Positions 7,378-51,466 of a DNA stretch of 64,000 nt are shown piece by piece. Made by a program: the position numbers and the translations under genes. Every line of letters begins with the position of its first letter. The stretch's first letter is position 1. A model generated the notes under the pieces. It made no database searches and had not been told where the DNA came from. It saw only the letters and a list, made by a program, of their open reading frames with translations. The stretch is from NCBI GenBank assembly GCA_963751455.1, contig CAVVUN010000001.1:656669-720668 (forward strand). The letters run 5' to 3'. This DNA is from Nitrospirota bacterium. GTDB lineage: Bacteria > Nitrospirota > UBA9217.

Positions 7378-10300
7378 CTACCTCAACCTGATTCCGGTAT
7401 TCCCGCCTGACACCTTCACCCCATACTTCAAACTATCAGGATACGCAATCAGGTTTCTTATTTCCGTCCCATCAGCCTTGAATATCTTCACTGTCGGATC
7501 GTTCTGCGGACAGGGTCCCGCGCCGGCAATGACTTCATCCACTCCATCGCCGTCAAGATCAGCGCTCGATACGTTCACGCCATACTTCAAGCTCGATTCA
7601 TACGCTGCAAATTCCCGGACCAGGGTCCCATCGGCTTTATATATCCTGATCGCTGATGAATTCTTTGGGTCAGATCCGGCGCCGGCGATAATCTCTGATT
7701 TCCCGTCTCCATCCATGTCTCCAGACGTAATATTTACTCCATAAGTTCCTTCAAATGCGGTGAAGGTGGTTAGCGGAGTAAGGTCGCTAGACTCATATTT
7801 CCATATAGTAACGGATGCGTCGTTATTCGGTCCGGGTCCGGGCGCTGTAATGATCTCAGGTATGTTGTCTCCATCGATGTCTCCGGCTGTTATATTCAGC
7901 CCGTAAGAACTCTGGCTATTCACAGTGTGGGCTATTATCTGAGTGAATCCGGCGCTCGTATATTTAAGCACTTTCAGGATGCCAGGATTCTTCGGGTCAG
8001 GGCCGGCGCCCACGATCAATTCATCGACCCAGTCCCCGTCCAGATCGCCGGACGCAAGCGTCAACCCGTATTTCGTGTCAAACGCCGCGTATTCAGCAAG
8101 GAGCGAACCGTCTCTCTTGAAAGCCCTGAACGTCGCGCCGTTCTTCGGGTCCGGTCCCTGTGCGACGATTATTTCGTCATAACCGTCGCCGTCGATATCA
8201 GCCGAAATTGCATTTGCGCCGTACTTCGTATCGAACGCCTTGAATTCCTTAATAAGCTCCGCGTTGCCGTCATAGAGCCGTACCAGCGCCTCATTCTGCG
8301 GACCCGGCCCGGCTGAAGCGATAATGCCAGGAGCGATATCCGGGTTCTGCTGGATAACCAGATTCAGGTTCAAGTCATGGCGGACTAGTCCATCGTCTCC
8401 AGTCACCGTGAGGGCATACGTGCCCGGCTTAACGTATTTCGATGTCAAAACAGTCAAAGCAGCCTGTCCAGGGACTGAGGTTTGAGCACTATCCAGGGAC
8501 GCTCTTACACCATACGGCAATCCTGTAACTGTCAAACCCACAACGCCTTCGTAACCATTGAGCGCCGAAATGCTTATCGGCAGAGCCGAGGATTCGAGTT
8601 GCTTTATTGTCCGGCTCAACTCCGCTGCTTCCATTCCGAAACCGGACACATCGAGGGTAAGCGGTACTGTATGCGTCACGATTTCGCCCTCATCCGTCCC
8701 CTGCGCAGTCAGGTACAAGGTATGCGTTCCTGTAACCGTCTTGTCCGTTGCAATCACTAAAGTCTCTGACTGGCCGGGTAGCATTAATCTATCCGGGTTG
8801 AACGTTACAGTCGCGCCGGCCGGTAAACCATCAATGTTCATCGACGTTTCATTGTTCCATCCATTCAAAGGTGTCAAAGTTGCGATGAATGAGGCTGTTT
8901 CCCCCTGTTTAATCCTTGCACTGGTTTCGTCGAGGATAATGGTAAAATCTGGCGCTTTGTTAAGAGCTATGAGCTTCGTGCTCGAAATTGAACTTTCGAT
9001 CATGGTATCGGCTATAGTGTATGCGCCGTCCACTGCCAGCCCTGCTGTGTTCCACACTTGTGAGAAGGTGGTCCTCATTGATGGCGGCAGCGCGCCTAGA
9101 TTCGTAATGTTCGTATATGCCGCATTGCCTGAGGAGTCCTTAGCAGTCGTCATTATGGCAGCTCCATTATAGGTGGTTGATGCCGTCAGGTTCATGATGG
9201 TGGAGGTGATGTATACCTTCTGCCTGATCTTATAGGTATCTTTGTCTGTTTCGGTAAGAATCGCAAGCTCAGGTATTTTAACAGCCATGCTTCCGCTGTT
9301 ATTATTTTCATTGAACTCTGTAACTGTATTCCCTTCATTTACTTTTACCGTGATCGAATGATCTCCAGCCTTGCCGAGGATATTCCAAGAAACCGCAACA
9401 GTTTCATATTCTCCCAAATTCAGCGCTCTAACCGATTTAGTGTCAATCAGAGTTTCACCATCATGGAAAGCTACGATCGCATCACCGGAGGCAGTCCTGC
9501 CCTGATTCATGATAGTTGCTGTAATTTGGATGGTGCTATCCGGTTTGATATCAGTCACCCCTACGCTGGTAATTTTCAAATCCGGCAAATCGCTTCCGTA
9601 AATAAAACTTGTCTCTTTTGTGCTGGTGAGACCGTCAGCGGTCAAAACCGCTTTAAGAATATGAGAACCGGGTGATACGTCTGACAAATCATAGCTCACA
9701 GTTGCGAAACCATCGAGCGGGGCCGTTTCTGTGCGAACTAAAGCGCCGTCTACCAGCAGTTCGAGTGCAGCGTCAGCGGTACCGAACATATTCGCCTTTA
9801 CGACAACCGGCTCCGATGTGAGGTTGTAAACCGTCTTATCTGTGCCAATCCCCAGAAGCACCGCGTCACCTACATCGAACGCCTCTGACCCGGATGACAG
9901 AAGCAGATCACCCGAATAGAGACCGTACACCAGGCGATGGATTCCGCTTAATGCAGTTCGGAGTTGTGAGTTCACAGTTGTGAGTAAGGGTTCAGACGGA
10001 GAAAGTATAATCGCGCTCTCCCCTGCAGGTGTATACTTTTCCATTGGATCTACAACCCAGCTCTTAAGGATCACCGGAAGATCGATATTGCTCGTTAGAG
10101 TAAGGTTAGCGGTGATGGCGTCTGTTTTTGTGTATTTGCCCTTATCCAGTTTTGCTTCAATTATCTTGACTTGAATGCCGCTTACGTCAATAGGATGTGA
10201 AACAGTAATGGATTCAGAGTTTTGAGTTTTAAGTTGAACGTTTATGTTATACGTTCCAGCCGTCATTGTTGACGGAAGAGGAATGTGCTTCGATGCCGAT

Positions 10301-11049
10301 CCGGTAAACCCAACAGTCTCAGAATATCCGCCAGGTCCTGTTAAAATCATCTGCCCGCTCACACCCATCCGCACGCTGCTTACTGTGACGTTTACTGTAT
10401 CGCCGGGATTATACACCTGTTTGTCCGCAGTGATCGTCAGTACATCTCCGGCTTTATAGAGATAGATGGAATTCAAATGTATTGACCGGCCTCCAGCGTG
10501 ATAGACGCCGTAGAAAAGCTTCTCTCCGGTGATCTGATCGAGTGGAATGTCAAACGTGAGCGACTGATTGCCGTTTAAGGTCAAGGATTTTTGTTCTTCA
10601 TGACCTGAATAATTGACTCTTGCAAACAGATCGAAGCTGGTCAGCTGCTCTCCATTGTCCTCAATCCGGAGAGTTAATCTCGCCGTATCTCCGACTGAAT
10701 AGATCTGCTTATCCAGCGAAGCGGTAACGGCGATGTTGATTCCCTCGAGATGGTACTTCACTTGACCTTTTGCTACGCCTGCGTCCGCAGTGGAGAGAGC
10801 CGGGGTGAGGGTATACTGGGCAAAGTAATCATTTTCCTCCAAGTCTTCGGGTAAGAGAATCCCGAACGTCACCGTCGTCTCTTCTCCGGGCTTAAGCCAA
10901 ACCGGTTGAGTTGAGTCGATGAGGTCGTATGCATTGAAAGTAAAATCGAAGCTCCCTTCCTGATTGCCGGTGTTCCTGACCCTGAAGTCAAACGTTCCTT
11001 CCTCTCCTGCCCTAAAGGTCTGATATGGCGGCAGCTGAGTAATCTTCAA
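7378..11049 (-). CDS. C-terminal part of giant secreted protein 1 (Ig-like, CARDB, FG-GAP propeller)
   Basis: LPDLKIT...VTEFNENNN CARDB; repeated AGDIDGDxxxEII.G.G FG-GAP; no signal peptide; continues the upstream ORF across a frameshift near 11050. Confidence 0.85.
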   Translation of the reverse strand: MKITQLPPYQTFRAGEEGTFDFRVRNTGNQEGSFDFTFNAYDLIDSTQPVWLKPGEETTVTFGILLPEDLEENDYFAQYTLTPALSTADAGVAKGQVKYHLEGINIAVTASLDKQIYSVGDTARLTLRIEDNGEQLTSFDLFARVNYSGHEEQKSLTLNGNQSLTFDIPLDQITGEKLFYGVYHAGGRSIHLNSIYLYKAGDVLTITADKQVYNPGDTVNVTVSSVRMGVSGQMILTGPGGYSETVGFTGSASKHIPLPSTMTAGTYNINVQLKTQNSESITVSHPIDVSGIQVKIIEAKLDKGKYTKTDAITANLTLTSNIDLPVILKSWVVDPMEKYTPAGESAIILSPSEPLLTTVNSQLRTALSGIHRLVYGLYSGDLLLSSGSEAFDVGDAVLLGIGTDKTVYNLTSEPVVVKANMFGTADAALELLVDGALVRTETAPLDGFATVSYDLSDVSPGSHILKAVLTADGLTSTKETSFIYGSDLPDLKITSVGVTDIKPDSTIQITATIMNQGRTASGDAIVAFHDGETLIDTKSVRALNLGEYETVAVSWNILGKAGDHSITVKVNEGNTVTEFNENNNSGSMAVKIPELAILTETDKDTYKIRQKVYITSTIMNLTASTTYNGAAIMTTAKDSSGNAAYTNITNLGALPPSMRTTFSQVWNTAGLAVDGAYTIADTMIESSISSTKLIALNKAPDFTIILDETSARIKQGETASFIATLTPLNGWNNETSMNIDGLPAGATVTFNPDRLMLPGQSETLVIATDKTVTGTHTLYLTAQGTDEGEIVTHTVPLTLDVSGFGMEAAELSRTIKQLESSALPISISALNGYEGVVGLTVTGLPYGVRASLDSAQTSVPGQAALTVLTSKYVKPGTYALTVTGDDGLVRHDLNLNLVIQQNPDIAPGIIASAGPGPQNEALVRLYDGNAELIKEFKAFDTKYGANAISADIDGDGYDEIIVAQGPDPKNGATFRAFKRDGSLLAEYAAFDTKYGLTLASGDLDGDWVDELIVGAGPDPKNPGILKVLKYTSAGFTQIIAHTVNSQSSYGLNITAGDIDGDNIPEIITAPGPGPNNDASVTIWKYESSDLTPLTTFTAFEGTYGVNITSGDMDGDGKSEIIAGAGSDPKNSSAIRIYKADGTLVREFAAYESSLKYGVNVSSADLDGDGVDEVIAGAGPCPQNDPTVKIFKADGTEIRNLIAYPDSLKYGVKVSGGNTGIRLR

Positions 11050-14000
11050 GTGTTGCGCCTTGAATTACAAGCGATGAGTTTCGTGCCGTTAACTGGGTGC
11101 CGCTTTTGTTCAGGAGTGACATCTTTACCGTAAACGCACCCGGCATCATGGCTGCTGGATTAACGTTAAAAGACATAGTTAGTGAGGTGCCCGTTGTGAG
11201 TTGACTTATAGTTTGTTCAGCATTCCAAACAACATCGCCATTCTCATTTGTAATTTCGCATCTAGCGTTTCCTTCGATCGTGTTGTATCCGTTGTTCAAA
11301 AAATTGACGGAGACAGGGATCAACTCACCATTCTGCGACCCGACAGTTAATGCCATGTCAACCACATTCTCTTTGCGGACAGAGAAATTGACATTCGTTG
11401 TCGCTGTTGGAGATGAGCTTAGAGCCATGAGTTGATAATCGCCTTCGGTAAGATCGTAATACAGCATGTCGGAAATACTCGCGCCTAGCTGTAAATAGTA
11501 AGATTTTGAAGTTACATTCGGCATATCTCCATTTTTACGTAATTCGTAGCTGACGTCGAGCGACGCATCCAACTGTCCTGTATTTACAATCGTTACAGGG
11601 ACGATGATCTTGCCTTCAGGATATACTGTTTGAGAACTGACGGTCATCATCGAAGCAAGACCGTAGGCAACGGTCTTCGTCACTGTCTGGTTTAAATCGC
11701 CGCTGAAAGTAAACGTGTATTCTGTATTACTTGCTATCTGCTGCGAATATTGCAATTGCTTCGTTTCACCGGGCTGCAGCCGAATCTGCTGCACGTCTTC
11801 AAATCCAGCACTTTGAACGCCACATCCTACAGATGCCGCGATCTTTCCCTCGTTCTGGAGTTCAACGTTTATGTCAAACGGCTCGTTTCCCGTCACTTCA
11901 GGCATTGAAATGGCTGTTGAAATGTTGGGGCTAGCCACTTCAAACTGGTCAGCAATCTCCACAAGAGTGGAATTATTTTGCGTCACCCTGCCGGTCAGAA
12001 CGACCGTTCCATCCGTCACTGCTATTGTTGTTGCGGAGAATGGATAATTTCCTCCTGCTGCAACGCTGAACGTTTCGGCGTAGATCGTTTCTGTGGTTCC
12101 ATCTGGCCTCTGTTGGCCAAGCTCTGTCGTCTGATTCACCGCGTCGACACTCGCCAAATTCCGCACTTCTCCGGTTATGGTCACCGCCTCACCCGGTCTA
12201 TAAACTTTTTTATCCGTAGCGACCGACAGGATCGTATTTCCGGAGACAATGTAAAATGGATATTCCACATTGGCTAAGGTCTGACCAAGGCTGTTTTTGA
12301 GTTCCGCTTGGAGGTAAAGCTTTCCTGTAGTATTCACGGCCCCGATATCCGTTAAATAGTCCTGCGTCATATCGCCTTCTTGATTGATCGGTAAGCTTGC
12401 TGCAAAGAGCGTTTCAATTCCTCCTGGTTGTGAAAGAGCCATATTCTGGACACGATTGTTCCCGTTATCCACAGCGTAAATTGAACCATCGGATCCGGCA
12501 GCCAGACCTCCTGGATAAACAAATTGTCCATTGTCACTGCCGTATTCGCCCCATTTGGCTAAAAAAGTGCCATTACTGTCAAATTTCTGGATTCGATAGT
12601 TTCCAGTGTCTCCAACATAAACCGAGCCATCGGAATCTATGGCGACCCCTTCCGGCCAGGAAAATTGACCATCACAAGGCTGGTCGGCCACTCCATCACC
12701 ATCAGAATCAGTACTGCAATAATTACCCAATTTGCTGATGAAGTTGCCGTCGCTGTCAAATTTCTGAATACGGTTATTTCCATCCGATACATAGATGTAA
12801 CCTTCAGGACTGATCGCTAAACCCGAAGGATAATAAAAATTGCCATCACATTCCTTGTCGGGTATGCCATCCCAATTCGAGTCGGCAATACAACGGGTTC
12901 CCCATTTTGATATAAAATTTCCATTCCCATCAAATTTCTGAATTTGGTGATTAATGTAATCAGCAACATATAAAAACCCTCTCTGATCTGCTCCTATGCC
13001 GTATGGGCCAAGGAACCCCCCCTTGCATTCCCTGTCAGGTATGCCGTCCCAATTCGTGTCCACAATACAACGGGTCCCCCATTTTGATATAAAGTTTCCA
13101 TTCGCATCTAATTTCTGGATAAGATTATTATCATAATCGGTAACATACACGGACCCGTCTGTGCTTACAGCAATACCCATAGGCCATGAAAATTTTCCGT
13201 CACATTCTTTGTCAGAAATCCCATCCCAGTTACTGTCTGTACGGCAATAATTACCCGTTTGACTTACAAAATTGCCGCTGGCATCATATTTCTGAATACG
13301 ACTGTTATAACTGTCAGTCACGTAGAGGGAGCCATCTGGCGCTGCTGCTACCCCATATGGCGAATATAACAGACCTTCACATAGATGTTCAGGATTGCCG
13401 TCATAGTTGCTGTCCGTCTGGCAGTAGCTCTCCCATGTAGTAACTAAATTTCCATTATTGTCAAATTTAAGAATATTATCTATCCCCTCAACAGTAGCTT
13501 CAGCATATATTGATCCATCACGAGTAATAGCAATGCCATAAGGCGAACCATCCAAATCCCACGAAGTGACATAGTTTCCATTTTCATCAAATTTCAGGAT
13601 ACGTTTAGCACCGTAATCAGTTGAATATACAGAACCGTCAGGACCTACACCAAGCCCAAATATCCAAGAGAGCCCTCCGTAAGCAGTGTTATCGTCTCCC
13701 CAACTCATTATAAAATTCCCACTGCTGTCAAACTTCTGAATCCGATGATTACCTGCGTCCGCTACATACAAAGAACCATCAACTCCTACACATAAACCTT
13801 CAGGGGTCATAAACTGCCCATCAAGCCATCCCCAATCGCCGATTATCGCAATAAAATTCCCATTGCTGTCGAATTTTTGAACGCGATCATGGCCGGTATC
13901 CGACACATAAACAAAACCGTCAACGCTTACGGCTACACTCTTAGGAGTGTCGAATTGTCCGTTCAGCCATCCTGAAGTGCCCCAGGCAGCGATAAAATTT

Positions 14001-17000
14001 CCGAACGCGTCAAACTTCTGAATACGGTTGTTGCCGGTATCCGCTACATATACAGATCCATCTGGTCCCACAGCAATACCCATTGGGTAATTGAATTGCC
14101 CGTAATTTTCTCCACTGCGACCCCAAACAGAGACCAATTTTCCGGTTTTATCAAGCCTTAAGATGCGGTCGTAAGCGGAATCAGTTACGTAAAGAGAACC
14201 ATCAGAACCAGCGGCTATACCATATGAACCGAAAGGAGGAAACCAGTTTTCATTGGGTAGAAAATGAACAAATCCTCTCGACGATTCCCCGCTTTTTTGC
14301 ATTCTCTTCACGGCGAGTTCTAAACTGCCGCCGTTTATGCCGAATTTCCCATTAGCAATATTCGACAATGCAGTCAGTGATTCATTTTTTAAATAGACAC
14401 CTTTATTCGTACTCGACTGTAATTGAGCCGTCGGCCCTTCGATGTCAAGTTGCCTATAATAAGTGGAATGATTTCCTGTTCTCACATCCTTCACTTGAAC
14501 GTCCAACTGAGCAGGTCCGTTTAAAGTCTGTGCTGGCATTTGAACATCGAGCATCTGAGCTGATCCAGCCAGGATCTCACCGCTGGCATTGCCGGAAAAA
14601 ACAACTATTCCTTTATTGTCATAGACAGCAATTTTTTCCGCTAGATACGTTGTATCCACTCCACCTGTATTTTTTATGCTTAGGTTAATGGAATCACCGG
14701 CGATGATTGAATCGGAACCAGTGTAGTCTATACCTAACAGCGATTCGGGTACTGTGAACACGACATTTTTTGCGATCTCACTTCCGGTCGGAAGTGTCAA
14801 AGCTATAGCGACTGCATGCTGGCCCGGTAAGATAGAAGCAGGGATAGGAATGGCTAGTTTGACTGTTGAAGTTTGGGCAGTGGCGACAGTTTCTATCTCA
14901 CTATGGCTATAGTTTATATCTGGGGCTGCTACTGACACTGAAAGATTGTCAAGATTAAACTTCCCTCCATTGATAATGGCAATGGTGAGATACGATGTTT
15001 CTCTTACACTATAAGATGACTTGTCAAAAGAAGCCATAACTGTAGGAGTATTTGGGATAATAATTCCACCGCTTTGTGTTTTTCCTTGATTGTTCAAAGA
15101 ATAGATTAGGCTATAATCCCCGAAGCGAGGGTTTTCGATTGGTATCGAAACATTAATTGTCGCCGTTTGGCCTGCCTGTAGAGACTGAAGCTGCTCATGG
15201 CTATCCCATATCACGGCCCCATCTGGATCTTTGAGAGATAGTGAAAGGGTAGCACAAGAAACTGGTAAAAGACCATTGTTTTTGATAGCAAAAGTTATAT
15301 AGCTATTCGATCCAAACACGGGAGGGGTAATTGGCGTAACAGAAAGTAGTGTTTTGATCAACTCAAAGCTTGATCTCGTGTAGCCAATTTTTCTTGTCCC
15401 TAAATATGCATCTACTGAAACAGAGTAGAAACCATATTTCGCGGCAGAAGGGAGATAAAAATTTAAGGTCCGCGTGGTTATCTCGTCAGCAAGAAGGTTT
15501 ATATCAAGAGTTGAGCTGAAAATCTCGTCATTGTAAGGATCTGTCACACGCACCTGAAGCGCGGATGGATAACCGATATCCAATTTATTTTGAATGTTCA
15601 GTTCAATCTTTACTTCCTCTCCTGCCTCATAACGGATATCGTTGGTCATCGAAGATACATAAATTGAAGGATTTATCATCCATATTCCTCTTTCGGCATA
15701 TCCAATTTGCATCCCGCGTTCATCTAATAATTTCGCTCTCAATCTGTCTGTACCACGAACATTGTCTAAAATGTAATCAAAGCTGAGATGACTGTTTGCC
15801 GGAATCGTAATGGCCTTATTAAAATAACTATCCCATCCGAAAGAATGATGTGCTAAACCCCAGGTTACGGTAAGGTTTCGTTCGGTACCGCTATTATTCC
15901 AAATATGAAAAGTAAACGACGCACTTGAACCTGCGAAATAATTCTCAGAAGCGCTCTGAACCGATAAATTTAAATCCGGGCTCTTAAACGGATTGCTTAG
16001 CGGATTGTTTACGACAAATCTCCCTGAATCGGTCTCTGCCAGAGACTGAATGATATTGCCATGATTATCTAATAGTGTATAATCAATCTGCCAAATACCC
16101 ACTGGACTTGCGGATGAGCTTGCGAACATGAATGGCACTGAAATCAGTTGCCCTGCGGGAACAAGCTGTGATATGTCCTGTGTCAGCTGAACGTTTTTTG
16201 CTGGATCGAGCACCTTCAATTGAACATAGGAGGCATCTGTAGTGGTAGTGTTCGAAACAACGAGCAATAGCGAAGCTGTTTCACCGGGTTTTATATCCGG
16301 CAGCAGTACGGCTGATTTCGCCCAGGTTATCATGTCCCTTACCAGAGACCGTTCTTCAGCACTGGCCTGTCCGTGCCCAAAAGCCCAATCCGAATACATA
16401 CTGGTTACTATTACTCTACCCTGACCGTGTTCATACATGATCAGTGCAGGCTGCCCATTGGCCGTCCTACGCAAAATTACGGTCGCGGTTGAAGGGAAAC
16501 TCGTAAAGTATCCATCCACATTGATGGTTGGTATGGGCCAACTTTGACCTGACAAAATCTGATGCCAGGTATCAAAGTAAACCGCATTAGTAAAACACGA
16601 TTGATCTTCAGTCCATCCATACCCTGAAATTGGTTTGCCATCGGGCGTAGGCAACACCTCGAATTCATATCCATGCTGTTGTGCAAAAACTATTAACGTG
16701 CCTCCGACTTTCACATACTCATCCAACTGGGTTTTGAGGACAGATGAACCGTTGAGACCGTACAGGCCCGCCGAAGGGACAATCAATACCGGATGGTTTT
16801 GCACGATATCCGGTGAAAATGATGTCTCTACAAGCGTGTATGGTTCACCCATCTTATATAACATCATTTGCAAAGACCCGCTGAACCCGTTTGCAAGGAT
16901 CGCCAGATCGGGAATCGTCTTGAATTCAGACTTCTCCGCTTTATTCAGACCGTCTAATTCTCTGATGACTTGCAGCTTTCGTGCATTCATTTCCTTGAGC

Positions 17001-18595
17001 GTCGGGTCGGTTATCTCTAACACCTGCTTGAGGTCACGGGTTATCGCCTCTTCGCCGTCCAATACAGGTTGATTGCGATAGTATTCTTCCTCACTGCGTT
17101 CCAAATTCTCCAGCTCTTTTTTCAGGAGATAGCTTTTGACTGTTGCAGTCTTGTTTTTCTTCACTGCCAGGCGCACCAGTTTATCTGCGGTAGCCGGTTG
17201 TGCATCTATTATTGAAGTCGAAGCTACATCATAATTATCGTCGGGATGATCATTGCCCGGACAGTCCGGCGGAGGAGCCCCTTCCGCCAGGGGTTTGATC
17301 ACCAAAAAACTCGGTATCAGGGTTCCCTTATCCTGGGAATCGGTTACAAACAGATCCACGTGAAAACTTTTTTGCGTATTCGTAACATTGCACGGGTCGG
17401 ATGCAGGAACTGCCACATTGAATGAGAAATCGTAATTCGGCATAGCGGCAGGATTTATATCGTATGGTGAACCAACAGGGAGAACCTCGGGATCGCTATC
17501 AAGAGTGCTAGCACCCACGCTTTGGTTCACAAAATTGGACACAAGAGATACACTTTTCCATTCAGGAAGATAATGATACCTGCCTATTGCTTTCGACACT
17601 CCTGTTCCATATATCGGTTGCAAAGTGTATACCTTTTGACCAATTCCGGTATTGTCATAGTTCAGCATATAGGATATGGATTTTATCAACAGATCGTTAT
17701 CGTCAAATACTCCTCCCAGTTCTATTGTGGCAGGACCCTGTGTATAAATTACATTCGTCAGATTCGCGTTCATATTTGAATAAATTGCCTCACCGTTGTT
17801 GTCCATGACTTTTACATAAGAAAGCTGCGAAATGGGCGCGCCTGCATCTGGTAGGTATCGCAACGGGTCTTGCAATGTGCCCGCCGCATCTCTTACTTCG
17901 AAGTGGAGATGAGGTCCGCCCAGATTGGCTGAATAGGCGTCGACGCCATAGTTGCTTCCATTCCATGTTACCGTTGCATTGCCTGATGCGCCGCTTCTAG
18001 CCAATCTAGTTCCAGGCGCAACGATTATTAAAGTGGAATCCTGTGTAAACTGAGTGAGATGCGCATATAATGTGCTAAATCCTGAATATTGAGCCGAATT
18101 GTGAGTCACCCTTGCATACAGACCATAGCCTGTATTTATGCGGTATGGGCCCTCTCCGACTTGAAGATTGTTATATTGAAATGTCACTGTGCCAGCATCG
18201 ACTGCATAAACGTCGGTTCCTATAGGCGATGCAATATCCAGACCGCTATGGCTTCCACCTGCCCTGGATCCAAATAGCCCATGAGTGCTTATGGTCCAGC
18301 CGTTCTGTTTATACCAATAAGACTGGTGGCAGGCGGCATTACTGCACTCTCTATAGCCCCGAACCTTATCGACCGCAAAAGTTTCTGAAACGGGTGCCGG
18401 GTCCGGCGTCGCCAGTGAATCCGTTTGATGGTAGGTATAAGCATATCCACTCTCATTTCTGAGCGGGTTATTCAGCTTGATCGTGTCGGGCAAAGGATTG
18501 CTGGGAAAAGCAGCATACGCAACAGAGATAAACGCGTCCAAAATCACGAAAGCTGATAAAACTACTGAGCTATAAAGGCGTTTTGTCCTATTCAT
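11012..18595 (-). CDS. N-terminal part of giant secreted protein 1 (signal peptide, M23 peptidase, GATase-like domain, Ig-like domains, NHL repeats)
   Basis: M23 zinc ligands HSGLD, YAH and PHLHFE are intact; more than 10 NHL repeats (P.GIAV..DGSVYVADTGN.RIQKFD); GGAGG RBS before ATG 18595. Confidence 0.88.
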   Translation of the reverse strand: MNRTKRLYSSVVLSAFVILDAFISVAYAAFPSNPLPDTIKLNNPLRNESGYAYTYHQTDSLATPDPAPVSETFAVDKVRGYRECSNAACHQSYWYKQNGWTISTHGLFGSRAGGSHSGLDIASPIGTDVYAVDAGTVTFQYNNLQVGEGPYRINTGYGLYARVTHNSAQYSGFSTLYAHLTQFTQDSTLIIVAPGTRLARSGASGNATVTWNGSNYGVDAYSANLGGPHLHFEVRDAAGTLQDPLRYLPDAGAPISQLSYVKVMDNNGEAIYSNMNANLTNVIYTQGPATIELGGVFDDNDLLIKSISYMLNYDNTGIGQKVYTLQPIYGTGVSKAIGRYHYLPEWKSVSLVSNFVNQSVGASTLDSDPEVLPVGSPYDINPAAMPNYDFSFNVAVPASDPCNVTNTQKSFHVDLFVTDSQDKGTLIPSFLVIKPLAEGAPPPDCPGNDHPDDNYDVASTSIIDAQPATADKLVRLAVKKNKTATVKSYLLKKELENLERSEEEYYRNQPVLDGEEAITRDLKQVLEITDPTLKEMNARKLQVIRELDGLNKAEKSEFKTIPDLAILANGFSGSLQMMLYKMGEPYTLVETSFSPDIVQNHPVLIVPSAGLYGLNGSSVLKTQLDEYVKVGGTLIVFAQQHGYEFEVLPTPDGKPISGYGWTEDQSCFTNAVYFDTWHQILSGQSWPIPTINVDGYFTSFPSTATVILRRTANGQPALIMYEHGQGRVIVTSMYSDWAFGHGQASAEERSLVRDMITWAKSAVLLPDIKPGETASLLLVVSNTTTTDASYVQLKVLDPAKNVQLTQDISQLVPAGQLISVPFMFASSSASPVGIWQIDYTLLDNHGNIIQSLAETDSGRFVVNNPLSNPFKSPDLNLSVQSASENYFAGSSASFTFHIWNNSGTERNLTVTWGLAHHSFGWDSYFNKAITIPANSHLSFDYILDNVRGTDRLRAKLLDERGMQIGYAERGIWMINPSIYVSSMTNDIRYEAGEEVKIELNIQNKLDIGYPSALQVRVTDPYNDEIFSSTLDINLLADEITTRTLNFYLPSAAKYGFYSVSVDAYLGTRKIGYTRSSFELIKTLLSVTPITPPVFGSNSYITFAIKNNGLLPVSCATLSLSLKDPDGAVIWDSHEQLQSLQAGQTATINVSIPIENPRFGDYSLIYSLNNQGKTQSGGIIIPNTPTVMASFDKSSYSVRETSYLTIAIINGGKFNLDNLSVSVAAPDINYSHSEIETVATAQTSTVKLAIPIPASILPGQHAVAIALTLPTGSEIAKNVVFTVPESLLGIDYTGSDSIIAGDSINLSIKNTGGVDTTYLAEKIAVYDNKGIVVFSGNASGEILAGSAQMLDVQMPAQTLNGPAQLDVQVKDVRTGNHSTYYRQLDIEGPTAQLQSSTNKGVYLKNESLTALSNIANGKFGINGGSLELAVKRMQKSGESSRGFVHFLPNENWFPPFGSYGIAAGSDGSLYVTDSAYDRILRLDKTGKLVSVWGRSGENYGQFNYPMGIAVGPDGSVYVADTGNNRIQKFDAFGNFIAAWGTSGWLNGQFDTPKSVAVSVDGFVYVSDTGHDRVQKFDSNGNFIAIIGDWGWLDGQFMTPEGLCVGVDGSLYVADAGNHRIQKFDSSGNFIMSWGDDNTAYGGLSWIFGLGVGPDGSVYSTDYGAKRILKFDENGNYVTSWDLDGSPYGIAITRDGSIYAEATVEGIDNILKFDNNGNLVTTWESYCQTDSNYDGNPEHLCEGLLYSPYGVAAAPDGSLYVTDSYNSRIQKYDASGNFVSQTGNYCRTDSNWDGISDKECDGKFSWPMGIAVSTDGSVYVTDYDNNLIQKLDANGNFISKWGTRCIVDTNWDGIPDRECKGGFLGPYGIGADQRGFLYVADYINHQIQKFDGNGNFISKWGTRCIADSNWDGIPDKECDGNFYYPSGLAISPEGYIYVSDGNNRIQKFDSDGNFISKLGNYCSTDSDGDGVADQPCDGQFSWPEGVAIDSDGSVYVGDTGNYRIQKFDSNGTFLAKWGEYGSDNGQFVYPGGLAAGSDGSIYAVDNGNNRVQNMALSQPGGIETLFAASLPINQEGDMTQDYLTDIGAVNTTGKLYLQAELKNSLGQTLANVEYPFYIVSGNTILSVATDKKVYRPGEAVTITGEVRNLASVDAVNQTTELGQQRPDGTTETIYAETFSVAAGGNYPFSATTIAVTDGTVVLTGRVTQNNSTLVEIADQFEVASPNISTAISMPEVTGNEPFDINVELQNEGKIAASVGCGVQSAGFEDVQQIRLQPGETKQLQYSQQIASNTEYTFTFSGDLNQTVTKTVAYGLASMMTVSSQTVYPEGKIIVPVTIVNTGQLDASLDVSYELRKNGDMPNVTSKSYYLQLGASISDMLYYDLTEGDYQLMALSSSPTATTNVNFSVRKENVVDMALTVGSQNGELIPVSVNFLNNGYNTIEGNARCEITNENGDVVWNAEQTISQLTTGTSLTMSFNVNPAAMMPGAFTVKMSLLNKSGTQLTARNSSLVIQGATLEDYSAAAISDL

Positions 18596-18610
18596 ATTAT
18601 AACCCTCCAC

Positions 18611-19909
18611 TTAGAAAGCAATTAAGTTATAATTCTTACCGTTCGCGGACAGATATCGTGCATTCTTGGAAAGCGAAAATCCTAAGCTCTTTAAACGAAA
18701 TGCATAAAGCTCGTTATTTTTTACTATCAAAAGAACGTTAGCATAGGGATTCGTTTTATCGTGAACAAATTCAATTCCGTTTAAAGCCCACAAATAAATA
18801 ACTGATCCATCGTCATTCATCGCTATTTTTTCTACTATCAACCCCACAGTCGAAGGATCCCCAAAATTCAGTGGAACCATAATGTTTGTCTTTATACCGC
18901 CATCATTGGCATCAAAGAGATAAAGTTCCATGTACTTTTTGCGAATGGGAGGTTCTGTTTTTCTTTCGGCAATATATTTCAAGGCAAAAATGCGATACTC
19001 GTCATTCGTAATGATTGCGTCATAAAGGTTATCGAGCAAATTTGGGAATAAATTTTCATTGCTCCATACCTTGTCTCCATTTCCGGCTTCAAAAACAGCA
19101 AGTGTCCGTTGTGATTTTACGAGAATCCGTTGTCCATCTTTAAACATCTTTCCCCATGTTTCCGAACTGGTCTCTGATTTGCTTTTCATATACTCTCTAA
19201 TAAATCCACTTTGACATGAAAACAGCTTAACGCCTACCTTTGATGGGAATTTCAGAATCTTCTTCTCAAAATAGTAAGAATGATCCACCGCAAGGCGGGA
19301 CAGGATGAATACATCGGACTCGTTGGCAAAGTGGATTTCGGCTGCAGGATTCGTCAACCCAGGCTCATCATATTTCCAGTGCACTTCGCTCGTCCCGGGA
19401 TCTATGCTTCTGATCCAATCGTGTCTCTGTTTCTTATCATCAAAATAACCTCCAAATTCGACGACACATTTGCCATTTAGACTTTGAATCGCATAGAGAT
19501 GATTATAGTGGCCCTCGTCGCCGAATGCGTCTCTCTCAAGCCACTTTTTTATCTGCTTTCTCTCTTCCGTTTCAGGAAGCTTTACTTCGGGCTTTTTCTC
19601 TTCCTTCGGGAACTCCACTCCGTCAGGAAGTTTATCAACCACTGGAAATACATCATCCAGCGTGGGCAAATCTTTCAGACTGCCCCATGTAACGACCGGC
19701 AACCCTTCTTCACTCACCACTTCCTTGCCGCGAGCACGTTCGAGAGCCGATAGTTGTTGTTTCGCCTTTGCGCCTGCTTGTTGCTCAGACTGTTGAGTGG
19801 CACTATTCTGTGGTTGGACTGGAGTGCCACCCTCTTTTGTTTTCTTACAAGCGAAGGAGAGAAAGCAGATAACAGATAGCGCGATACTAACGAATATGAT
19901 TTTCTTCAT
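18611..19909 (-). CDS. Lipoprotein with probable beta-propeller C-terminus, paralog B
   Basis: Lipobox LSFAC; PQQ/WD-like motifs (GDKVWSN, LSKNARYL); abuts the giant M23 gene. Confidence 0.8.
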   Translation of the reverse strand: MKKIIFVSIALSVICFLSFACKKTKEGGTPVQPQNSATQQSEQQAGAKAKQQLSALERARGKEVVSEEGLPVVTWGSLKDLPTLDDVFPVVDKLPDGVEFPKEEKKPEVKLPETEERKQIKKWLERDAFGDEGHYNHLYAIQSLNGKCVVEFGGYFDDKKQRHDWIRSIDPGTSEVHWKYDEPGLTNPAAEIHFANESDVFILSRLAVDHSYYFEKKILKFPSKVGVKLFSCQSGFIREYMKSKSETSSETWGKMFKDGQRILVKSQRTLAVFEAGNGDKVWSNENLFPNLLDNLYDAIITNDEYRIFALKYIAERKTEPPIRKKYMELYLFDANDGGIKTNIMVPLNFGDPSTVGLIVEKIAMNDDGSVIYLWALNGIEFVHDKTNPYANVLLIVKNNELYAFRLKSLGFSLSKNARYLSANGKNYNLIAF

Positions 19910-19924
19910 TTTTTCTTTCCTCCA

Positions 19925-20464
19925 TCGTCATATGAGCATATAGTGTGCTTACTCCGGAATATTAAACAGAATTGTGAGTCACCCGTACGTATAGACCGTA
20001 GCCCGTATTGATACGGTATGGTCCTCTCCGACTTGTAGATTGTTATATTGAAATGTCACAGTGCCAGCATCGACTGCATAAACGTCGGTTCCTATAGGCG
20101 CTGCAATATCCAGACCGCTATGGCTTCCACCTGCCCTGGATCCAAATAGCCCATGAGTGCTTATGGTCCAGCCGTTCTGTTTATACCAATAAGACTGGTG
20201 GCAGGCGGCGTTACTACATTCTCGGAACCCTTTGACTTTATCGACAATGAAATTTTCAGAAGCCGGCGACGGATTCGGCATAGTAAGAGAATTTGTTGGA
20301 ACGTATGAATACGTATAGCCAGCTTCATTCCTGAGTGGATTGTTCATTTTAACCGTATCAGGTAGCGGGTTATTGGGGAAAACGGCAAAGGCGGGATAAA
20401 CGCAAACAAATAACAGAGAAATAAAAAGAATACCCGGCAGAAAAATTGTATTCATGCTTTTCAT
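19925..20464 (-). pseudogene. Truncated duplicate of the M23 N-terminus of giant protein 1
   Basis: Signal peptide + HSGLD; frameshift near 20022, internal TAA, homology ends at LYAHM just before the RBS of lipoprotein B. Confidence 0.88.
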
Positions 20465-21777
20465 TTTCTCCCCTCCCCTGATATTAATTGCAAACTATAA
20501 TATTTGCCGTCAGCAGCCAAGTATTTACCATCGCTGGAAAAGGCAAAACCAAAAGATTCTATTCGAAATGCATACGCGGCTCCAGCATGAGTCACCAAGA
20601 GTAGGATATTATCGTATGGATTTTTAACGTCGCCTTTAACTTGCCAGGAGGCATATTTATAGTCCATTAACCAAATGCCTGTGAGTAATCCGTCTTTTGA
20701 AACATCAAATCTTGTGTTCGTTAAATACAAGGCGTTTTTGTCACCAAGATTCGTATTTACTTTATTAGACCAGACCTCTTTTCCCGTTTTCAGCTCAAGA
20801 AGTCGATATATATCGCAGCACATGTTCTTCTTTGCATGTTGCGGGTCATGGTAGTCCACAAACAAATACGTCCCATCTGGTGAACTATTAATGGTTTGAA
20901 CAACATAGCCGCTGTATTCATTTTTTTTTTGCCATTCCAAATGCCCGCCAGTATCAAACGACTCAATAGTGCCCTTAGTAGTGGCAATAATCATGTCTTT
21001 ACCTTTGTCGCTCAGTATCCCCGCTACCATGGAACCAACTTCTTCTTCGCTCTTCATATATTCAAAAAGAAGTCCACTCCGGCAGGAAAATACTTTAACC
21101 CCTCTCCTTGGAGGGTATGCAACGAGTTTCTTTTCAAAATAATAAGAATGGGCCGTTCTTACATCGGACAGTAGAAAGATATCTGCTTCCAGTGCAAAAA
21201 CTACCTCTACCCCCGGATTCGTCAGCCCAGGCTCATCGTACTTCCAGAGAATCTCATTCGTTTTTGGGTCGATTGACCTCAACCAGTCTTCTCGTTTTCT
21301 CTTAGCATCGAAGTAGCCGCCAAACTCGACAATGCAATTCCCGTTGGGGCTTTTAAGTGCGTACAAGTGATTGCGACGTCCTTCATCCCCCTCTGCGTCC
21401 CTCTCAAGCCATTTCTTTATTTGCTTCCTCTCATCCGTTTCAGGAAGCTTTACTTCGGGCTTCTTCTCTTCCCTTGGGAACTCCACCCCCTCAGGAAGCT
21501 TATCGACGACCGAAAAGACCTCGTCCAGCGACGGCAAATCTTTCAAGCTCCCCCAGGTAACGACCGGCAAGCCCTCTTCGCTCATTACTTCCTTGCCGCG
21601 AGCGCGTTCGAGAGCCGATGGTTGTTGTTTCGCCTTTGCGCCTGTTTGTTGCTCGGGCTGTTGAGTGGCGCTATTCTGTGGTTGGACTGGAGTGAAACCC
21701 TCTTTTGTTTTCTTACAAGCGAAGGAGAGAAAGCATATAATAGATAGCGCGATACTACAGAATATGATTTTCTTCAT
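20461..21777 (-). CDS. Lipoprotein with probable beta-propeller C-terminus, paralog A
   Basis: Lipobox LSFAC; N-half closely matches 18611-19909, C-half divergent. Confidence 0.8.
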   Translation of the reverse strand: MKKIIFCSIALSIICFLSFACKKTKEGFTPVQPQNSATQQPEQQTGAKAKQQPSALERARGKEVMSEEGLPVVTWGSLKDLPSLDEVFSVVDKLPEGVEFPREEKKPEVKLPETDERKQIKKWLERDAEGDEGRRNHLYALKSPNGNCIVEFGGYFDAKRKREDWLRSIDPKTNEILWKYDEPGLTNPGVEVVFALEADIFLLSDVRTAHSYYFEKKLVAYPPRRGVKVFSCRSGLLFEYMKSEEEVGSMVAGILSDKGKDMIIATTKGTIESFDTGGHLEWQKKNEYSGYVVQTINSSPDGTYLFVDYHDPQHAKKNMCCDIYRLLELKTGKEVWSNKVNTNLGDKNALYLTNTRFDVSKDGLLTGIWLMDYKYASWQVKGDVKNPYDNILLLVTHAGAAYAFRIESFGFAFSSDGKYLAADGKYYSLQLISGEGRK

Positions 21778-22145
21778 TTTCTTCCCTCCATCGATCACTG
21801 ACCGATGATTGATTAACAACTCAGTTTTTTATTAGCTGATTTTTTTGACTCGTTGGTAGGGATACAAGGTGCATTTCAGCAAAGCTTTACAAACGGGTGG
21901 AACGAAAAACGAAAATTTGTATTGCTTGACTTGAATGCTTGTGCGGATACATTCTGGAATGTAACCTGATTATTGTCGAGCTGAACTAGTTTGTCAAGGT
22001 TTTCGATGGTATTATATACGTATGCCTGTCAAATTGAAGATATAGAAAATGTGTTAATGAAGGTATTATGACATGAAAATATCGAAGAAAAAACCCGCCG
22101 GAGAGTTATTAATCCAGCGGGCTCTTAAAGGCTCTAAGAATTTTT

Positions 22146-22838
22146 TTACGAAGCAAGCTCTCTATCTTTAATCTTGATCTCAGCCTTGTTTTTCAGGCTT
22201 TTTACGAAAACATCGAGTGCATCGCGCTGTTTTTCATCGAGAAGCGTCCGCTTGAAACTCTCCTTGTTTTTTTCATAATCGCCCTTTTTGGCCTTCGGAT
22301 TCCTGGCCGCGTATGCCGCAGCAAGCTCTGCATCGATTACCGCTACCCCGTCCTGGACCAGCCGCTCCAGTTTTTGCCTCTTGAGATATTCGCGCTGGCT
22401 CGCCTCAAAAACAGCCGGCGTCATGTTAATATTTTGGAGCGCCCGTTCATATATCCGCTTGTCAAATTTTCCCTGGGGACTGAAGGACGGAATCTGCATG
22501 ATATAGGCCTGGAGTTCTTCATCGGTTATCCGTATACCCTGTTTCTCTGATTCCTGGACGAGCAGCCGGTTTTCGATCAACTGCTGCAAGGCCTGGCTCC
22601 TGAGCATCTTGACCAGATTGTCGTTCATCTGGTCTTTGAATAACTGCCGGTAGTTTTCATACATGTTCTGATAAACGCGGTTGTAGTCATCCGCGGTTAT
22701 CACATACCCGTCCACCTTAGCTACCGTCCTTCCGGCAACATCTGACGGATAAATTCCGAAAAACAAAAACGTTACCGTTACGAGCACCACAATCAGCCAC
22801 ATGATCCATTTCATGTGTCTATGCATTTGTTCAAGCAT
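22146..22838 (-). CDS. SurA N-terminal domain protein (PpiD-like periplasmic chaperone)
   Basis: N-terminal TM; VAKVDG..IT...ALQQLIENRLL...GIRITDEEL...GKFD. Confidence 0.85.
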   Translation of the reverse strand: MLEQMHRHMKWIMWLIVVLVTVTFLFFGIYPSDVAGRTVAKVDGYVITADDYNRVYQNMYENYRQLFKDQMNDNLVKMLRSQALQQLIENRLLVQESEKQGIRITDEELQAYIMQIPSFSPQGKFDKRIYERALQNINMTPAVFEASQREYLKRQKLERLVQDGVAVIDAELAAAYAARNPKAKKGDYEKNKESFKRTLLDEKQRDALDVFVKSLKNKAEIKIKDRELAS

Positions 22839-33471: not shown

Positions 33472-34002
33472 TTACCATGTATTGTAAGCCGTGCCATCGA
33501 CAGCAAGCAGGTCACTGGCGCTATGCACATCGAATACGCCGCCATCTGCGCCATCGGCCGGACTGACCGTAATCCAGTCGGCTTCACCGGTGAAAGGGTC
33601 CTTCGGCAAATCGCGCAGATAGCTGCGGGAGCGGTCTTCGCTATTTATCAGATCTGCCAGCTGCTCAGGGTACTTGCCGCTGTCCGCGTAAAACTGATCG
33701 ATCGCCTCCCGCATCTGGAACAGGTCCTCTTTCAAAACCGACTCCCTGGCCTTGACAATCGACTGTTTCAGGTTGGGCTGAGCGATCGTAATCAGGATGC
33801 CCATGATCGCCATAACTATCATGAGCTCGAGCAGGGTAAAGCCGTTTGATTTCGGATTGCAGATACTTGCACCCGATGCCTTCGAGTGCGTCGGCGCGAG
33901 AGTGGGGTGTTCGGATTGCGGATTGCTACTGCCAAACGGCGCACGCATCTTTTCCTGCCTGTTTGAGTTTTTCTCGATTATTCTCATAAGCCATCTGATC
34001 AT
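33472..34002 (-). CDS. T2SS pseudopilin (GspG-like) with repeat-extended leader
   Basis: GFTLLELMIV prepilin motif; REAIDQFYAD.GKYP..L; YLRDLPKDPFT. Confidence 0.85.
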   Translation of the reverse strand: MIRWLMRIIEKNSNRQEKMRAPFGSSNPQSEHPTLAPTHSKASGASICNPKSNGFTLLELMIVMAIMGILITIAQPNLKQSIVKARESVLKEDLFQMREAIDQFYADSGKYPEQLADLINSEDRSRSYLRDLPKDPFTGEADWITVSPADGADGGVFDVHSASDLLAVDGTAYNTW

Positions 34003-34056
34003 ATGGACTTGCCGTCTTTCATAGCTATGCTTTATGCAAAGATATTTTTACTCAAT

Positions 34057-34112
34057 CCGCCTGCACCCAGCCTGTGCCCAGCGATTACGAGTGCATTTGC
34101 GCGAGTGCAGGG
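34057..34112. repeat. CCGCCTGCACCC...GCGCGAGTGCAGGG palindromic repeat
   Basis: Matches the reverse complement of 29090-29134; degenerate copies near 33868-33907 and 34384-34400. Confidence 0.6.
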
Positions 34113-34237
34113 TACGTTTATGAGACCCTTGATTCCCGTCTCTGCGGTCATTGATTCCCGTCGCACGTATCTCAGCGCGATGGCCGATAAAGAGTCTAAG
34201 CCTTACTCAGCGAGATGGTACGACAATGAGTCTAAGT

Positions 34238-34369
34238 AGAGTTTGTATTTTAACTTCCATTTCATCATGTACCGTCATTCCAGCGAAAGCTGGAATCCAG
34301 TCTTTTCATAACCTTCTGGATGCCGGATCAAGTCCGGCATGACAAAGAAGACATTTAAAAACAGACTCT
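34238..34369. mobile_element. 132-bp MITE-like element carrying a REP-like core
   Basis: Imperfect TIR AGAGTTTGTATTTTAA / TTTAAAAACAGACTCT, flanked by AAGT direct repeats; internal GTCATTCCAGCGAAAGCTGGAATCCAG...CTGGATGCCGGATCAAGTCCGGCATGAC. Confidence 0.65.
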
Positions 34370-34419
34370 AAGTATTGCGGCATCGCGAGTGCAGGGTGAA
34401 ATTCGAAATGTTTTTATCC

Positions 34420-34998
34420 CTACCACGTCTTGTACGCCGAGCCGTCGATGGAGGTGGCGTCGCTTTTGGAGTATACGTCGAACACGTTATCGCCGCCCCA
34501 CTCCGTTGAATTAGGCTCGTCCTTATAGGAGCGAAGTCCCCAGTTATTCGGATCTTCAGCGGACGAGAGCGGCACCATGGGATCGCGCGGTATACGCCTC
34601 AGATACTTCTTCGTCTTGTCGACGGCCCCGGCCATTTTGAGCGGCTCCGTGAGCAATTCGAGCGATTCCGGGTAATAGTCGAGGTCCGCCTTGCAGTAAT
34701 CCGATGAGAGCTTTTCCGTCCCGGCACCGGGAGTACAATCCTTGCGGAATGCGTCGATCGCTCCGCGAAGAACACGAAGAGCGCTCCTCAGTTCCATCTC
34801 TTTCACTCGCTTCACGGTAATGCGCGATAGGGGCATGGCAGCGCTTGCAAGTATGCCCACGATCGCAATAACAACGAGAAGTTCTATCAGGGTAATCCCC
34901 TTTTCGGCCTTCATTGGAAATTGGAAATTGAAAATATCAAATTTTAAAAGTTTATTGTTCATTGTTTCATAATTCAATTTCCACTCTTCAATCTTCAA
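34420..34998 (-). CDS. T2SS pseudopilin (GspG-like); start may be 34914
   Basis: GITLIELLVV prepilin motif; KEMELRSALR..RGAID; YLRRIPRDPM; DVYSKS. Confidence 0.85.
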   Translation of the reverse strand: MKIEEWKLNYETMNNKLLKFDIFNFQFPMKAEKGITLIELLVVIAIVGILASAAMPLSRITVKRVKEMELRSALRVLRGAIDAFRKDCTPGAGTEKLSSDYCKADLDYYPESLELLTEPLKMAGAVDKTKKYLRRIPRDPMVPLSSAEDPNNWGLRSYKDEPNSTEWGGDNVFDVYSKSDATSIDGSAYKTW

Positions 34999-35028
34999 TT
35001 TTCAATTCGGCATTCTCAAGTGCGTTCC

Positions 35029-37374: not shown

Positions 37375-37412
37375 CGTCCTCCTCCTGACCGTTCTTGTGC
37401 CATTCCCATCTC

Positions 37413-38593: not shown

Positions 38594-39056
38594 TCGACTG
38601 GTGTTTGAGATAGGGATCTTTGAACCGGGCGGACTTTTCCAGTCCTACTATCAGGTTCCTGAGCGATTCAGGCGAGTGCGCCAACCCGTCAAGCGTCAGG
38701 ACACGGTCCCGGGGGTTTAAATCGATATGATCGACCGCCACGCCGACGGGGAAACTATTTTCAATGTCGGTCAAAAGCCTTGTCCAGGAAAACCTGCGCG
38801 TTTCCATGAGGCCCGACATGGAGATGAGGTCCTGCATGACCCGGTCGCGTTCGGCCAGGAGAGGACTCAGGGCCTCCTCGGCGGCTTTAAGTTCTTTGAC
38901 TTTCCGGTCCAGCAACGCGCTTTCCGTGCGCAGCCCGGCGCCGACCCGGATGATCAGCACAGACGCAATAGCCAGCAGAACCGCGCCTATAGTCAGTCCA
39001 TTCTGAATCCGGGTGATAAGACGGTAACTCTTGCTGGAGAAATTGATCGATATCAT
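38514..39056 (-). CDS. pilN: PilN-domain protein
   Basis: MISINF, TM, RFSWTRLL.DIE..FP..V, LTLDGLA, LEKSARF. Confidence 0.8.
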   Translation of the reverse strand: MISINFSSKSYRLITRIQNGLTIGAVLLAIASVLIIRVGAGLRTESALLDRKVKELKAAEEALSPLLAERDRVMQDLISMSGLMETRRFSWTRLLTDIENSFPVGVAVDHIDLNPRDRVLTLDGLAHSPESLRNLIVGLEKSARFKDPYLKHQSIDKGSISFNVVAHYSENKSAGVAQGK

Positions 39057-51465: not shown

Positions 51466-51466
51466 T

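Follow-up and report, generated by a model that had tools for sequence, protein, structure and literature searches.

A duplicated lipoprotein and M23 peptidase unit ahead of a giant gene in a Nitrospirota genome, a putative polymorphic toxin locus in mirror image

Comparison with described toxin and immunity systems

Rhs and CdiA proteins are constant giant carriers of variable toxins and are accompanied by orphan units, made of a toxin fragment and an immunity gene, that are homologous to the main gene (PMC3482391, PMC3967940; here and below, described systems are given as in the available parts of the cited papers). In Salmonella, an rhs orphan was switched in by recombination (PMC3967940). 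Zhang et al. 2012 (PMC3482391) define such systems by a C-terminal toxin, with toxin-then-immunity as the predominant gene order, and the available text does not contain the term 'M23'. The locus described here lies in a window of 64,000 nucleotides, the whole stretch analysed, from the Nitrospirota bacterium assembly GCA_963751455.1 (contig CAVVUN010000001.1, positions 656,669 to 720,668). It is a 1.87-kb tandem duplication on the minus strand, which carries in order of transcription the gene of lipoprotein A (lipA), an M23 peptidase stub, the gene of lipoprotein B (lipB) and a giant gene with an M23 peptidase head. As far as sequence comparison can tell, the locus is probably a mirror-image polymorphic toxin system, in which the toxin head is at the front of the carrier and both the immunity gene and the orphans are upstream.

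N-terminal toxins with upstream immunity genes are already known from effectors of the Xanthomonadales type IV secretion system and from WHIX effectors. The former, X-Tfe, have a variable N-terminal enzyme (M23, NlpC/P60, amidase and lipases are among those listed) and a constant C-terminal part, and their immunity gene, X-Tfi, is usually upstream and often encodes a lipoprotein (PMC6536674), much as in the present locus. Their constant part, however, is the XVIPCD of about 120 residues (PMC6536674), whereas that of the giant is a chassis some 3300 residues long that ends in FG-GAP repeats. The giant also starts with a sequence like a signal peptide, and a head fragment is part of the spare units. 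No XVIPCD-type family is present among the Pfam and NCBIfam matches at E 0.01, and the C-terminus consists of FG-GAP repeats both in the window gene and in its homologue P0012. Pfam holds a model of an XVIPCD-type family.

Awe1, a type VI secretion system (T6SS) effector that belongs to WHIX subclass II, has an N-terminal M23-like toxin, which is neutralised experimentally by the bound immunity protein AwiU encoded upstream (PMC12135965). That system relies on WHIX/VgrG delivery and has a second, C-terminal toxin (PMC12135965), unlike the giant here, in which a signal-like N-terminus and adhesin-type repeats are present and a toxin-like domain at the C-terminus is absent. No T6SS family was found among the window open reading frames (ORFs) scanned, which were not all of the ORFs and were run without a WHIX profile. 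In Rhs and CdiA the toxin is C-terminal, it precedes the immunity gene, and the downstream orphans lack start and export signals (PMC3482391); in contrast, the order is reversed here, and the stub keeps its start and a signal-like sequence.

Tandem immunity genes of type VII secretion systems, esaG and tipC, recombine through high-identity blocks around their variable parts (PMC9484751), and Vibrio T6SS arrays retain immunity genes after displacement of the effector (PMC5361080). The present locus resembles both, but those arrays are made of immunity genes only, which in Vibrio are downstream of the effector, while one homology block here lies in the catalytic core. Very large proteins near type II secretion genes are also described in Omnitrophota, where they are proposed to act in cell attachment and wall digestion (bioRxiv 2023.11.21.568195); they are far larger than the giant, and the available text describes for them no M23 domain, lipoprotein, CARDB domain or immunity pairing. 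The large hydrolase-bearing proteins in the available text of PMC12419801 and of the Omnitrophota report are other proteins than this giant. A description of the giant carrier was not found in the open-access literature, in which it appears to be undescribed; subscription papers and supplements, such as Additional File 1 of Zhang et al., may list it. The locus probably works like a polymorphic toxin and immunity locus, and by the features tested it falls outside the classical, X-Tfe and WHIX families.

Identity profile of the duplicated unit

Both units start with the same 9-mer, CGATGGAGG, at 21794 and 19927, which gives a spacing of 1867 bp, and the homology of the stub to the giant stops at the YAH codons. 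Identity between the units, per 100 aligned columns and in order, is 93, 90, 81, 79, 63, 64 and 63%, then 48-57% over the lipoprotein C-half and the M23 signal peptide, 67 and 65% over the M23 N-terminal extension, 100 and 93% in an M23 core block, and 71% at the end. The core block has 171 of 173 bp in common (Table 1). Within it, 56 of 58 same-residue codons are identical between stub and giant, against 13 of 40 just ahead of it (binomial P 4e-25). Conservation at the DNA level was rejected as the cause, since the M23 homologue at the metagenomic locus L023 has only 13 of 31 same-residue codons identical in this region, so the block is not intrinsically conserved DNA. By this codon comparison, the identity of the block is the result of recent exchange and is unexplained by constraint. 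The block is followed by 98 bp at 81% identity, and the lesions of the stub, a 1-bp deletion at about 20024 and an in-frame TAA, are at or past the block end.

The synonymous difference between lipA and lipB climbs stepwise from 0.08 to 0.36 and 0.46 and is then saturated, while that between stub and giant is saturated up to codon 83 and about 0.05 beyond. Several conversion or crossover events are needed to explain both the steps at the lipoprotein 5' end and the internal M23 block. A single recent duplication followed by one replacement is ruled out by the 98 bp after the block, which are just 81% identical, and uniform divergence along the duplication is ruled out by the identity and synonymous profiles. 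On these profiles, two diverged and recombined units of a lipoprotein plus an M23 head stand in front of the giant carrier.

A preliminary description of this DNA had read much of this layout from the letters. The ORF coordinates agree with its order of transcription, the shared 9-mer with its statement that each unit begins at a sequence just ahead of the lipoprotein start, and the YAH codons with its placing of the stub end at LYAH. The profile also bears out the very similar lipoprotein 5' halves (79-93% at the 5' end), the divergent C-halves and M23 signal peptides, and the nearly identical M23 block, then put at about 175 bp; the sliding-window comparison that it proposed gives patchy divergence. 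Its phrase of conserved ends around a variable middle catches the mosaic profile and misses that the block is internal, with diverged sequence past it. Recombinational cassette replacement holds as regards recombination, which the codon test and the rejection of a clade of A and B in the C-half show, and fails as one clean replacement. The giant, called full, is split by a frameshift near 11045 when it is compared with P0012.

The duplication could also be an assembly chimera that sets the alleles of two strains in tandem. The assembly of the window's genome (G000) is listed with 5.37% contamination, and a frame change splits one of its 45 housekeeping loci, but the junction is sharp, it lies within a 720-kb contig at the ribosome-binding site of the partner, and four further genomes, as well as another locus of this genome, have the same layout, which makes a chimera very improbable.

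Lipoproteins A and B

Lipoproteins A and B are 88-90% identical over their first 120 residues and 24-32% identical over the C-half, while the C-half of A is 44-60% identical to the foreign protein P0003. The tree of the C-half (13 rows; P0010, P0013, P0018 and P0021 were left out as partial or redundant) rejects a clade of A and B in the approximately unbiased (AU) test (p-AU 0.0009) and groups A with P0003 with support of 98/96. By these comparisons, lipoprotein A is a mosaic formed by recombination. They also bear on neutral decay, by which an old tandem duplication would have lost similarity except where gene conversion homogenised stretches similar enough to pair, and the spare would have no function. 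Patchy conversion of this kind fits the stepwise synonymous gradient and the internal block, and decay fits the frameshift of the giant and the insertion sequence that cuts another giant in the window. A C-half nearer to P0003 than to B, however, means that A was not made by divergence from B in place, and the same layout arose with other head types at five other loci; neutral decay is thus an improbable explanation.

The assignment of these proteins to beta-propeller lipoproteins follows from the lipobox of A and, for the fold, from the structure model of A alone. This model (predicted local distance difference test, pLDDT, 77) is a beta-propeller whose best match is a WD40 propeller (Z 15.1, root-mean-square deviation 5.9, 247 aligned residues); among the 50 matches listed, WD40-type propellers have Z 12.7-15.1, with low TM-scores of about 0.3-0.4 by query length. 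Neither lipoprotein matches a Pfam family, nor does B match an NCBIfam family. The family is rare, with 10 proteins including A and B, and a search of 1.84 billion proteins gives 11 representatives at E 1e-30, one of which is a long repeat protein. Relatives with DNA context number zero among genome contigs and zero in the 60 relatives searched; metagenomes gave two loci, of which L024 ends inside the lipoprotein and L023, the one outside locus with downstream DNA, has a single lipoprotein directly ahead of an M23 giant. Weak partial matches, mostly to the leader, are found in 6 of 400 genomes of the phylum.

M23 head, stub and chassis of the giant

The HSGLD and HLH motifs of the giant head align with 18 housekeeping M23 domains, and its PF01551 score is 49.7 bits against a cut-off of 28.7, so that the M23 zinc motifs read as intact; the stub retains only the HxxxD motif. 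About 190 residues without a Pfam match separate the M23 head from the DHPDD motif. The chassis start that follows has no Pfam match, no solved-structure match below E 0.2 and no plasmid match. With 7994 candidates scored in each class, the M23 head has P0012 as its only relative in long proteins and the stub itself as its only one in short proteins, and viral contigs hold none. A structure model of the head had pLDDT 37 and was not used.

P0012 (3708 residues) aligns to 18595-11045 and then, in another frame, to 11061-7393. Two separate genes at 11012-18595 and 7378-11049 were considered and rejected, as P0012 spans both as one protein. The split housekeeping locus mentioned above means that single-base errors occur in this assembly, and the frameshift near 11045 may be such an error. 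If the giant is indeed frameshifted, the locus may now give immunity only.

Heads and upstream partners in other genomes

The chassis start matches 38 of 401 genomes of the phylum sample and 18 of 301 genomes in the order of G277. As in the definition of Zhang et al. 2012, a variable enzyme is joined to a constant carrier, here with four head types on the same chassis start and with headless forms besides. Zinc phospholipase C (PLC)-like heads are present in L069, L071, L073, L106, L107, L108, L112 and L115, with invariant HF, HLxxD, H and FE columns; Pfam Zn_dep_PLPC was found in two of those scanned, and solved PLCs are matched by the profile of this head type, A5, with E about 1e-5. Amidase_6 heads (L072, L073, L110, L111 and L113) are above the cut-off in six of seven scanned, L116 has an NlpC/P60 head, and M23 heads occur in the window, L023 and P0012. 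In the giants read, the heads end at a D[HNC]PD[DE] motif. The window's genome has in addition a C39-like head on a giant with a related distal chassis (38-41% identity over residues 1080-2517).

Partners were compared in 19 pairs of partner and head from 14 loci. The partner is upstream of the head in all 19, and the head is N-terminal, the reverse of the C-terminal toxin and toxin-then-immunity order of Zhang et al. 2012. BLAST clusters of partners never mix head types (19/19): propellers go with M23 heads (three pairs), carboxypeptidase-regulatory-like proteins with TPR with PLC heads (eight, in three clusters), HEAT-repeat proteins with Amidase_6 heads (six) and YCF48 propellers with C39-like heads (two). 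A loose lipobox pattern matches 15 of the 19 partners. The set leaves out L069, L116 and L118, where the contig ends before the partner; L112, which has many frameshifts and for which tblastn gave the same PLC pairing; L114 and L117, which have no readable frame; the headless loci; and L075, where the PLC-like gene is separate from the chassis. As the neighbourhoods read, every type of head is accompanied by a partner family of its own upstream, and since kin are not independent, the Amidase_6 chassis being one clade, there are about four independent pairings.

The HEAT-repeat partners (L072 9434-10705, L079 5023-6327, L082 7064-7870) have the leader of the propeller partners, a lipobox followed by a CQKAKE-like stretch and a linker rich in Glu, Lys and Gln, which suggests a reused N-terminal module. 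The HEAT genes of L079 and L082 have no head or chassis within their sequence stretches.

Headless chassis genes are found in L070, L074 and L109, and in a type of about 1400 residues in L075-L078 and L084, where the gene lies between a gspE-like ATPase gene and a pseudopilin-like gene in relatives of the family. At L070 8514-11645, L074 3164-4696 and L109 377-1279, headless genes have proteins with carboxypeptidase-regulatory repeats ahead of them. The C-termini of two of these proteins bear HExxH (L070), and one protein, with a hydrophobic hairpin, is followed by a membrane protein (L074); these proteins are possibly separately encoded cargo. In L075, a lipoprotein gene and a PLC-like gene are inserted ahead of the headless gene.

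Spare units upstream of the main unit

A locus counted as readable if its head is fused to the chassis, its partner is visible and the sequence extends for at least another 2 kb upstream. By reading of ORFs, on which the count rests since a systematic tblastn missed Pfam-visible stubs in L110 and L113, an upstream spare of a partner plus a head fragment is present in 6 of 13 such loci (the window, L034, L108, L110, L113 and L073). These spares correspond to the stand-alone toxin cassettes with their own immunity gene of Zhang et al. 2012. The second such layout in the window's genome, L034 (G000:C6:46370-61207), has a YCF48 propeller, a frameshifted C39-like head that ends past a PKD domain, an insertion sequence, another YCF48 propeller and then a giant of 2501 residues. 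In L073, an amidase head with a truncated chassis precedes the PLC unit, and the spare's own partner would be past the contig end. L108 echoes the signature of the window: identity is about 50%, then 85-88%, and close to the stub end the catalytic core holds an exact run of 52 bp. Identity near the stub end climbs to 73-90% in L034 and to 58-66% only in L113, and between spare and main unit of L110 and L073 there is no high-identity block.

The preliminary description had likened the orphan layout to polymorphic toxin loci with the toxin at the N-terminus of the carrier and proposed a count of cassettes in related genomes. The likeness gains from other genomes, where the chassis bears different hydrolase heads and every head has a partner of its own upstream, and the count gives spare cassettes at five loci besides this one.

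The spares also help to decide on another explanation, in which the giants act as adhesins on the surface or as scavenging enzymes for the digestion of dead cells, prey or the envelope of the cell itself, the lipoproteins are head-specific chaperones, anchors or activators, and the spares are by-products of allele exchange. Most of the giant is indeed made of Ig-like, NHL, CARDB and FG-GAP parts. Headless chassis genes are frequent, with matches in 21 of 63 family genomes, and at the five such loci read they belong to a gene row like that of a type II secretion system (T2SS). The giant T2SS-linked proteins of Omnitrophota are proposed to digest prey walls (bioRxiv 2023.11.21.568195, available text), and a chaperone would account just as well for the co-variation of partner and head. 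On the other hand, the ORF of the spare partner is open while its head is truncated or frameshifted in the window, L034, L108 and L113 (in L110 the partner is cut by the contig end), and this favours an antidote, because a chaperone without a client has no obvious use and a spare antidote does. All identified heads also belong to classes used as periplasmic antibacterial effectors (PMC12135965 and PMC6536674, available parts). Adhesins or scavenging enzymes with chaperones are therefore rather unlikely, if still a serious alternative.

Proposed mechanism and points against it

As a polymorphic toxin system in mirror image, the locus would work as follows. One chassis family carries varied N-terminal enzymes, each with its own upstream partner family, as the loci read show. 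The giant, whose N-terminus is hydrophobic by eye, would be exported by Sec, so that a peptidoglycan- or lipid-cutting head crosses the periplasm of the producer. There the lipoprotein would block the head, and it would be the first product of the operon because an envelope hydrolase exported by Sec would meet its own substrate in the periplasm; X-Tfi proteins and AwiU have been demonstrated to be arranged in this way (PMC6536674, PMC12135965). The giant might then leave through a T2SS, and its Ig, NHL and FG-GAP parts might hold it on surfaces; in the five loci read, the headless chassis genes follow a T2SSE gene, and the window has a cluster of secretin, PilM, PilN, PilO and pseudopilin genes at 33472-39994. 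A new allele of partner plus head would enter by recombination and leave the other allele as an upstream spare, a step borne out in part. Intact lipoprotein A would protect against neighbours that wield an A-type head. Natural recombination between the two blocks could switch the alleles, since the stub is open for 143 codons and the 173-bp block is ahead of its lesions.

Put forward tentatively, and with somewhat more doubt than trust, is a wider claim. In it, the locus belongs to an undescribed class of giant proteins in this phylum, exported by Sec and type II secretion, that mirrors Rhs and CdiA, has its heads before D[HNC]PD[DE], has four unrelated lipoprotein or propeller antidote families, and has upstream silent cassettes that can recombine through the catalytic core, so that one crossover switches the allele.

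Several findings weigh against a toxin and immunity function. The giant is frameshifted in this assembly. Identity is about 80% between the two M23 heads and 24-32% between the C-halves of their partners, more asymmetry than a tight lock-and-key needs. By ORF reading, in which small stubs may be missed, no spare unit was seen in 7 of the 13 readable loci (L023, L071, L072, L106, L111, L112 and L115). The C39 assignment is weak, with motifs found by eye and a Pfam E of 0.028. The five Amidase_6 rows make up a single clade in the tree of the chassis (98/97), where the rows of M23 and PLC type alternate with monophyly unrejected (p-AU 0.22 and 0.23), so that repeated switching between head types is not established. 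The 19 pairs were hand-picked from ORF tables and include kin, and a head-specific chaperone or anchor would co-vary with head type equally well. In the tree of the lipoprotein N-half (14 rows), A and B group with weak support (83/76) and A with P0003 is unrejected (p-AU 0.22), and lipB is a long branch in the C-half tree. The link to the T2SS is one of neighbourhood, and the matching gspE in the window's genome has no adjacent chassis gene.

Features of the window and other giant loci

The coordinates of the features are given in Table 1. Sigma-70-like sites in the region number 7 against 7.7 expected, which is no enrichment, and an Rfam scan of 17500-22300 gave no match. The gene downstream of the giant encodes an M20 peptidase on the opposite strand.

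Table 1. Positions of features in the window
Feature	Position	Strand	Basis or remark
Giant, 3' part past the frameshift: MG2, CARDB, FG-GAP repeats	7378..11049	-	one gene with the 5' part, ~3740 codons
Giant, 5' part, 2527 aa: signal-like N-terminus, M23 head, chassis start, Ig-like, NHL, MG2, CARDB	11012..18595	-	Pfam
DHPDD motif at the border of variable head and shared chassis	17237..17251	-	D[HNC]PD[DE] at the same border in the other giants read, headed or headless
M23 peptidase head of the giant; HSGLD, YAH, HLH; three insertions relative to housekeeping M23 domains	17822..18517	-	PF01551 E 4.5e-13
Near-identical block, giant copy	18165..18337	-	alignment to the stub copy
Lipoprotein B, 432 aa, predicted cognate partner of the giant's M23 head	18611..19909	-	54% identical to A
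Junction CGATGGAGG, start of unit 2 with lipB ribosome-binding site	19919..19927	-	same 9-mer at 21786-21794
Dead 3' remnant of the stub, without HxH, ends at YAH	19927..20024	-	81% identity to the giant; in-frame TAA; 1-bp deletion where it starts
M23 stub ORF: signal-like N-terminus, N-terminal extension, HSGLD in frame (143 codons), then frameshifted tail	19979..20455	-	PF01551 E 5.6e-6, below cut-off
Near-identical block, stub copy	20037..20209	-	exact runs of 108, 40 and 23 bp
Lipoprotein A, 438 aa, spare (orphan) partner, C-half of P0003 type	20461..21777	-	lipobox LSFAC (Cys21); predicted beta-propeller
Sigma-70-like promoter match, 11/12, ~190 bp ahead of lipA	21969..21997	-	consensus match only
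Cluster like a T2SS or type IV pilus: PilM, PilN, PilO, secretin with TPR and cohesin domains, two pseudopilins	33472-39994		Pfam

The window's genome also has classical C-terminal toxin-like cassettes beside related CARDB giants. L037/L038 (G000:C15:1370907-1404899) has three tandem transglutaminase-like carrier units, with NlpC/P60, hydrophobic helical and NlpC/CHAP C-termini; each is followed by a different small gene and by a prenyltransferase-like/CARDB gene or giant, and an orphan NlpC/P60 C-terminal fragment is present as well. By its domains, it is a polymorphic toxin locus of classical orientation. L035/L036 (G000:C4:30000-56000) has duplicated transglutaminase/phosphodiesterase genes with 78% identity over 4.4 kb, behind which are two or three paralogous genes for secreted proteins of 290 residues and a CARDB giant of 6167 residues.

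A decayed giant locus at 40305-54503 of the window has an N-terminal remnant of a transglutaminase carrier, an FG-GAP secreted gene (50009-51301) and a prenyltransferase-like/CARDB giant that an insertion sequence (44969-46201) and a frameshift interrupt and whose 3' part is 90% identical to a giant on C15. DUF4379 zinc-finger repeat genes and an HNH-repeat gene are found at 52063-57072 in this decayed locus, and similar genes occur in the C15 and C4 giant loci. A 27-nt repeat with a CCTGAGCCTGTCGAAGGG core is present at 40492, 41419, 48520 and 48886, in frame inside giant ORFs. The intergenic stretch at 62092-62439 has nested inverted repeats, with 49-nt arms 250 nt apart and 29-nt arms 49 nt apart.

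Significance

If the locus is a polymorphic toxin system, it would mean that a phylum known mainly for its part in the nitrogen and sulfur cycles has one more class of interbacterial weapon, and that the logic of orphan cassettes in Rhs and CdiA also works reversed, with an N-terminal toxin. The chassis start, which has no Pfam match, would be a marker for finding further heads, and the partner families would be candidates for inhibitors of M23 peptidases, of Amidase_6 enzymes and of zinc phospholipases C.

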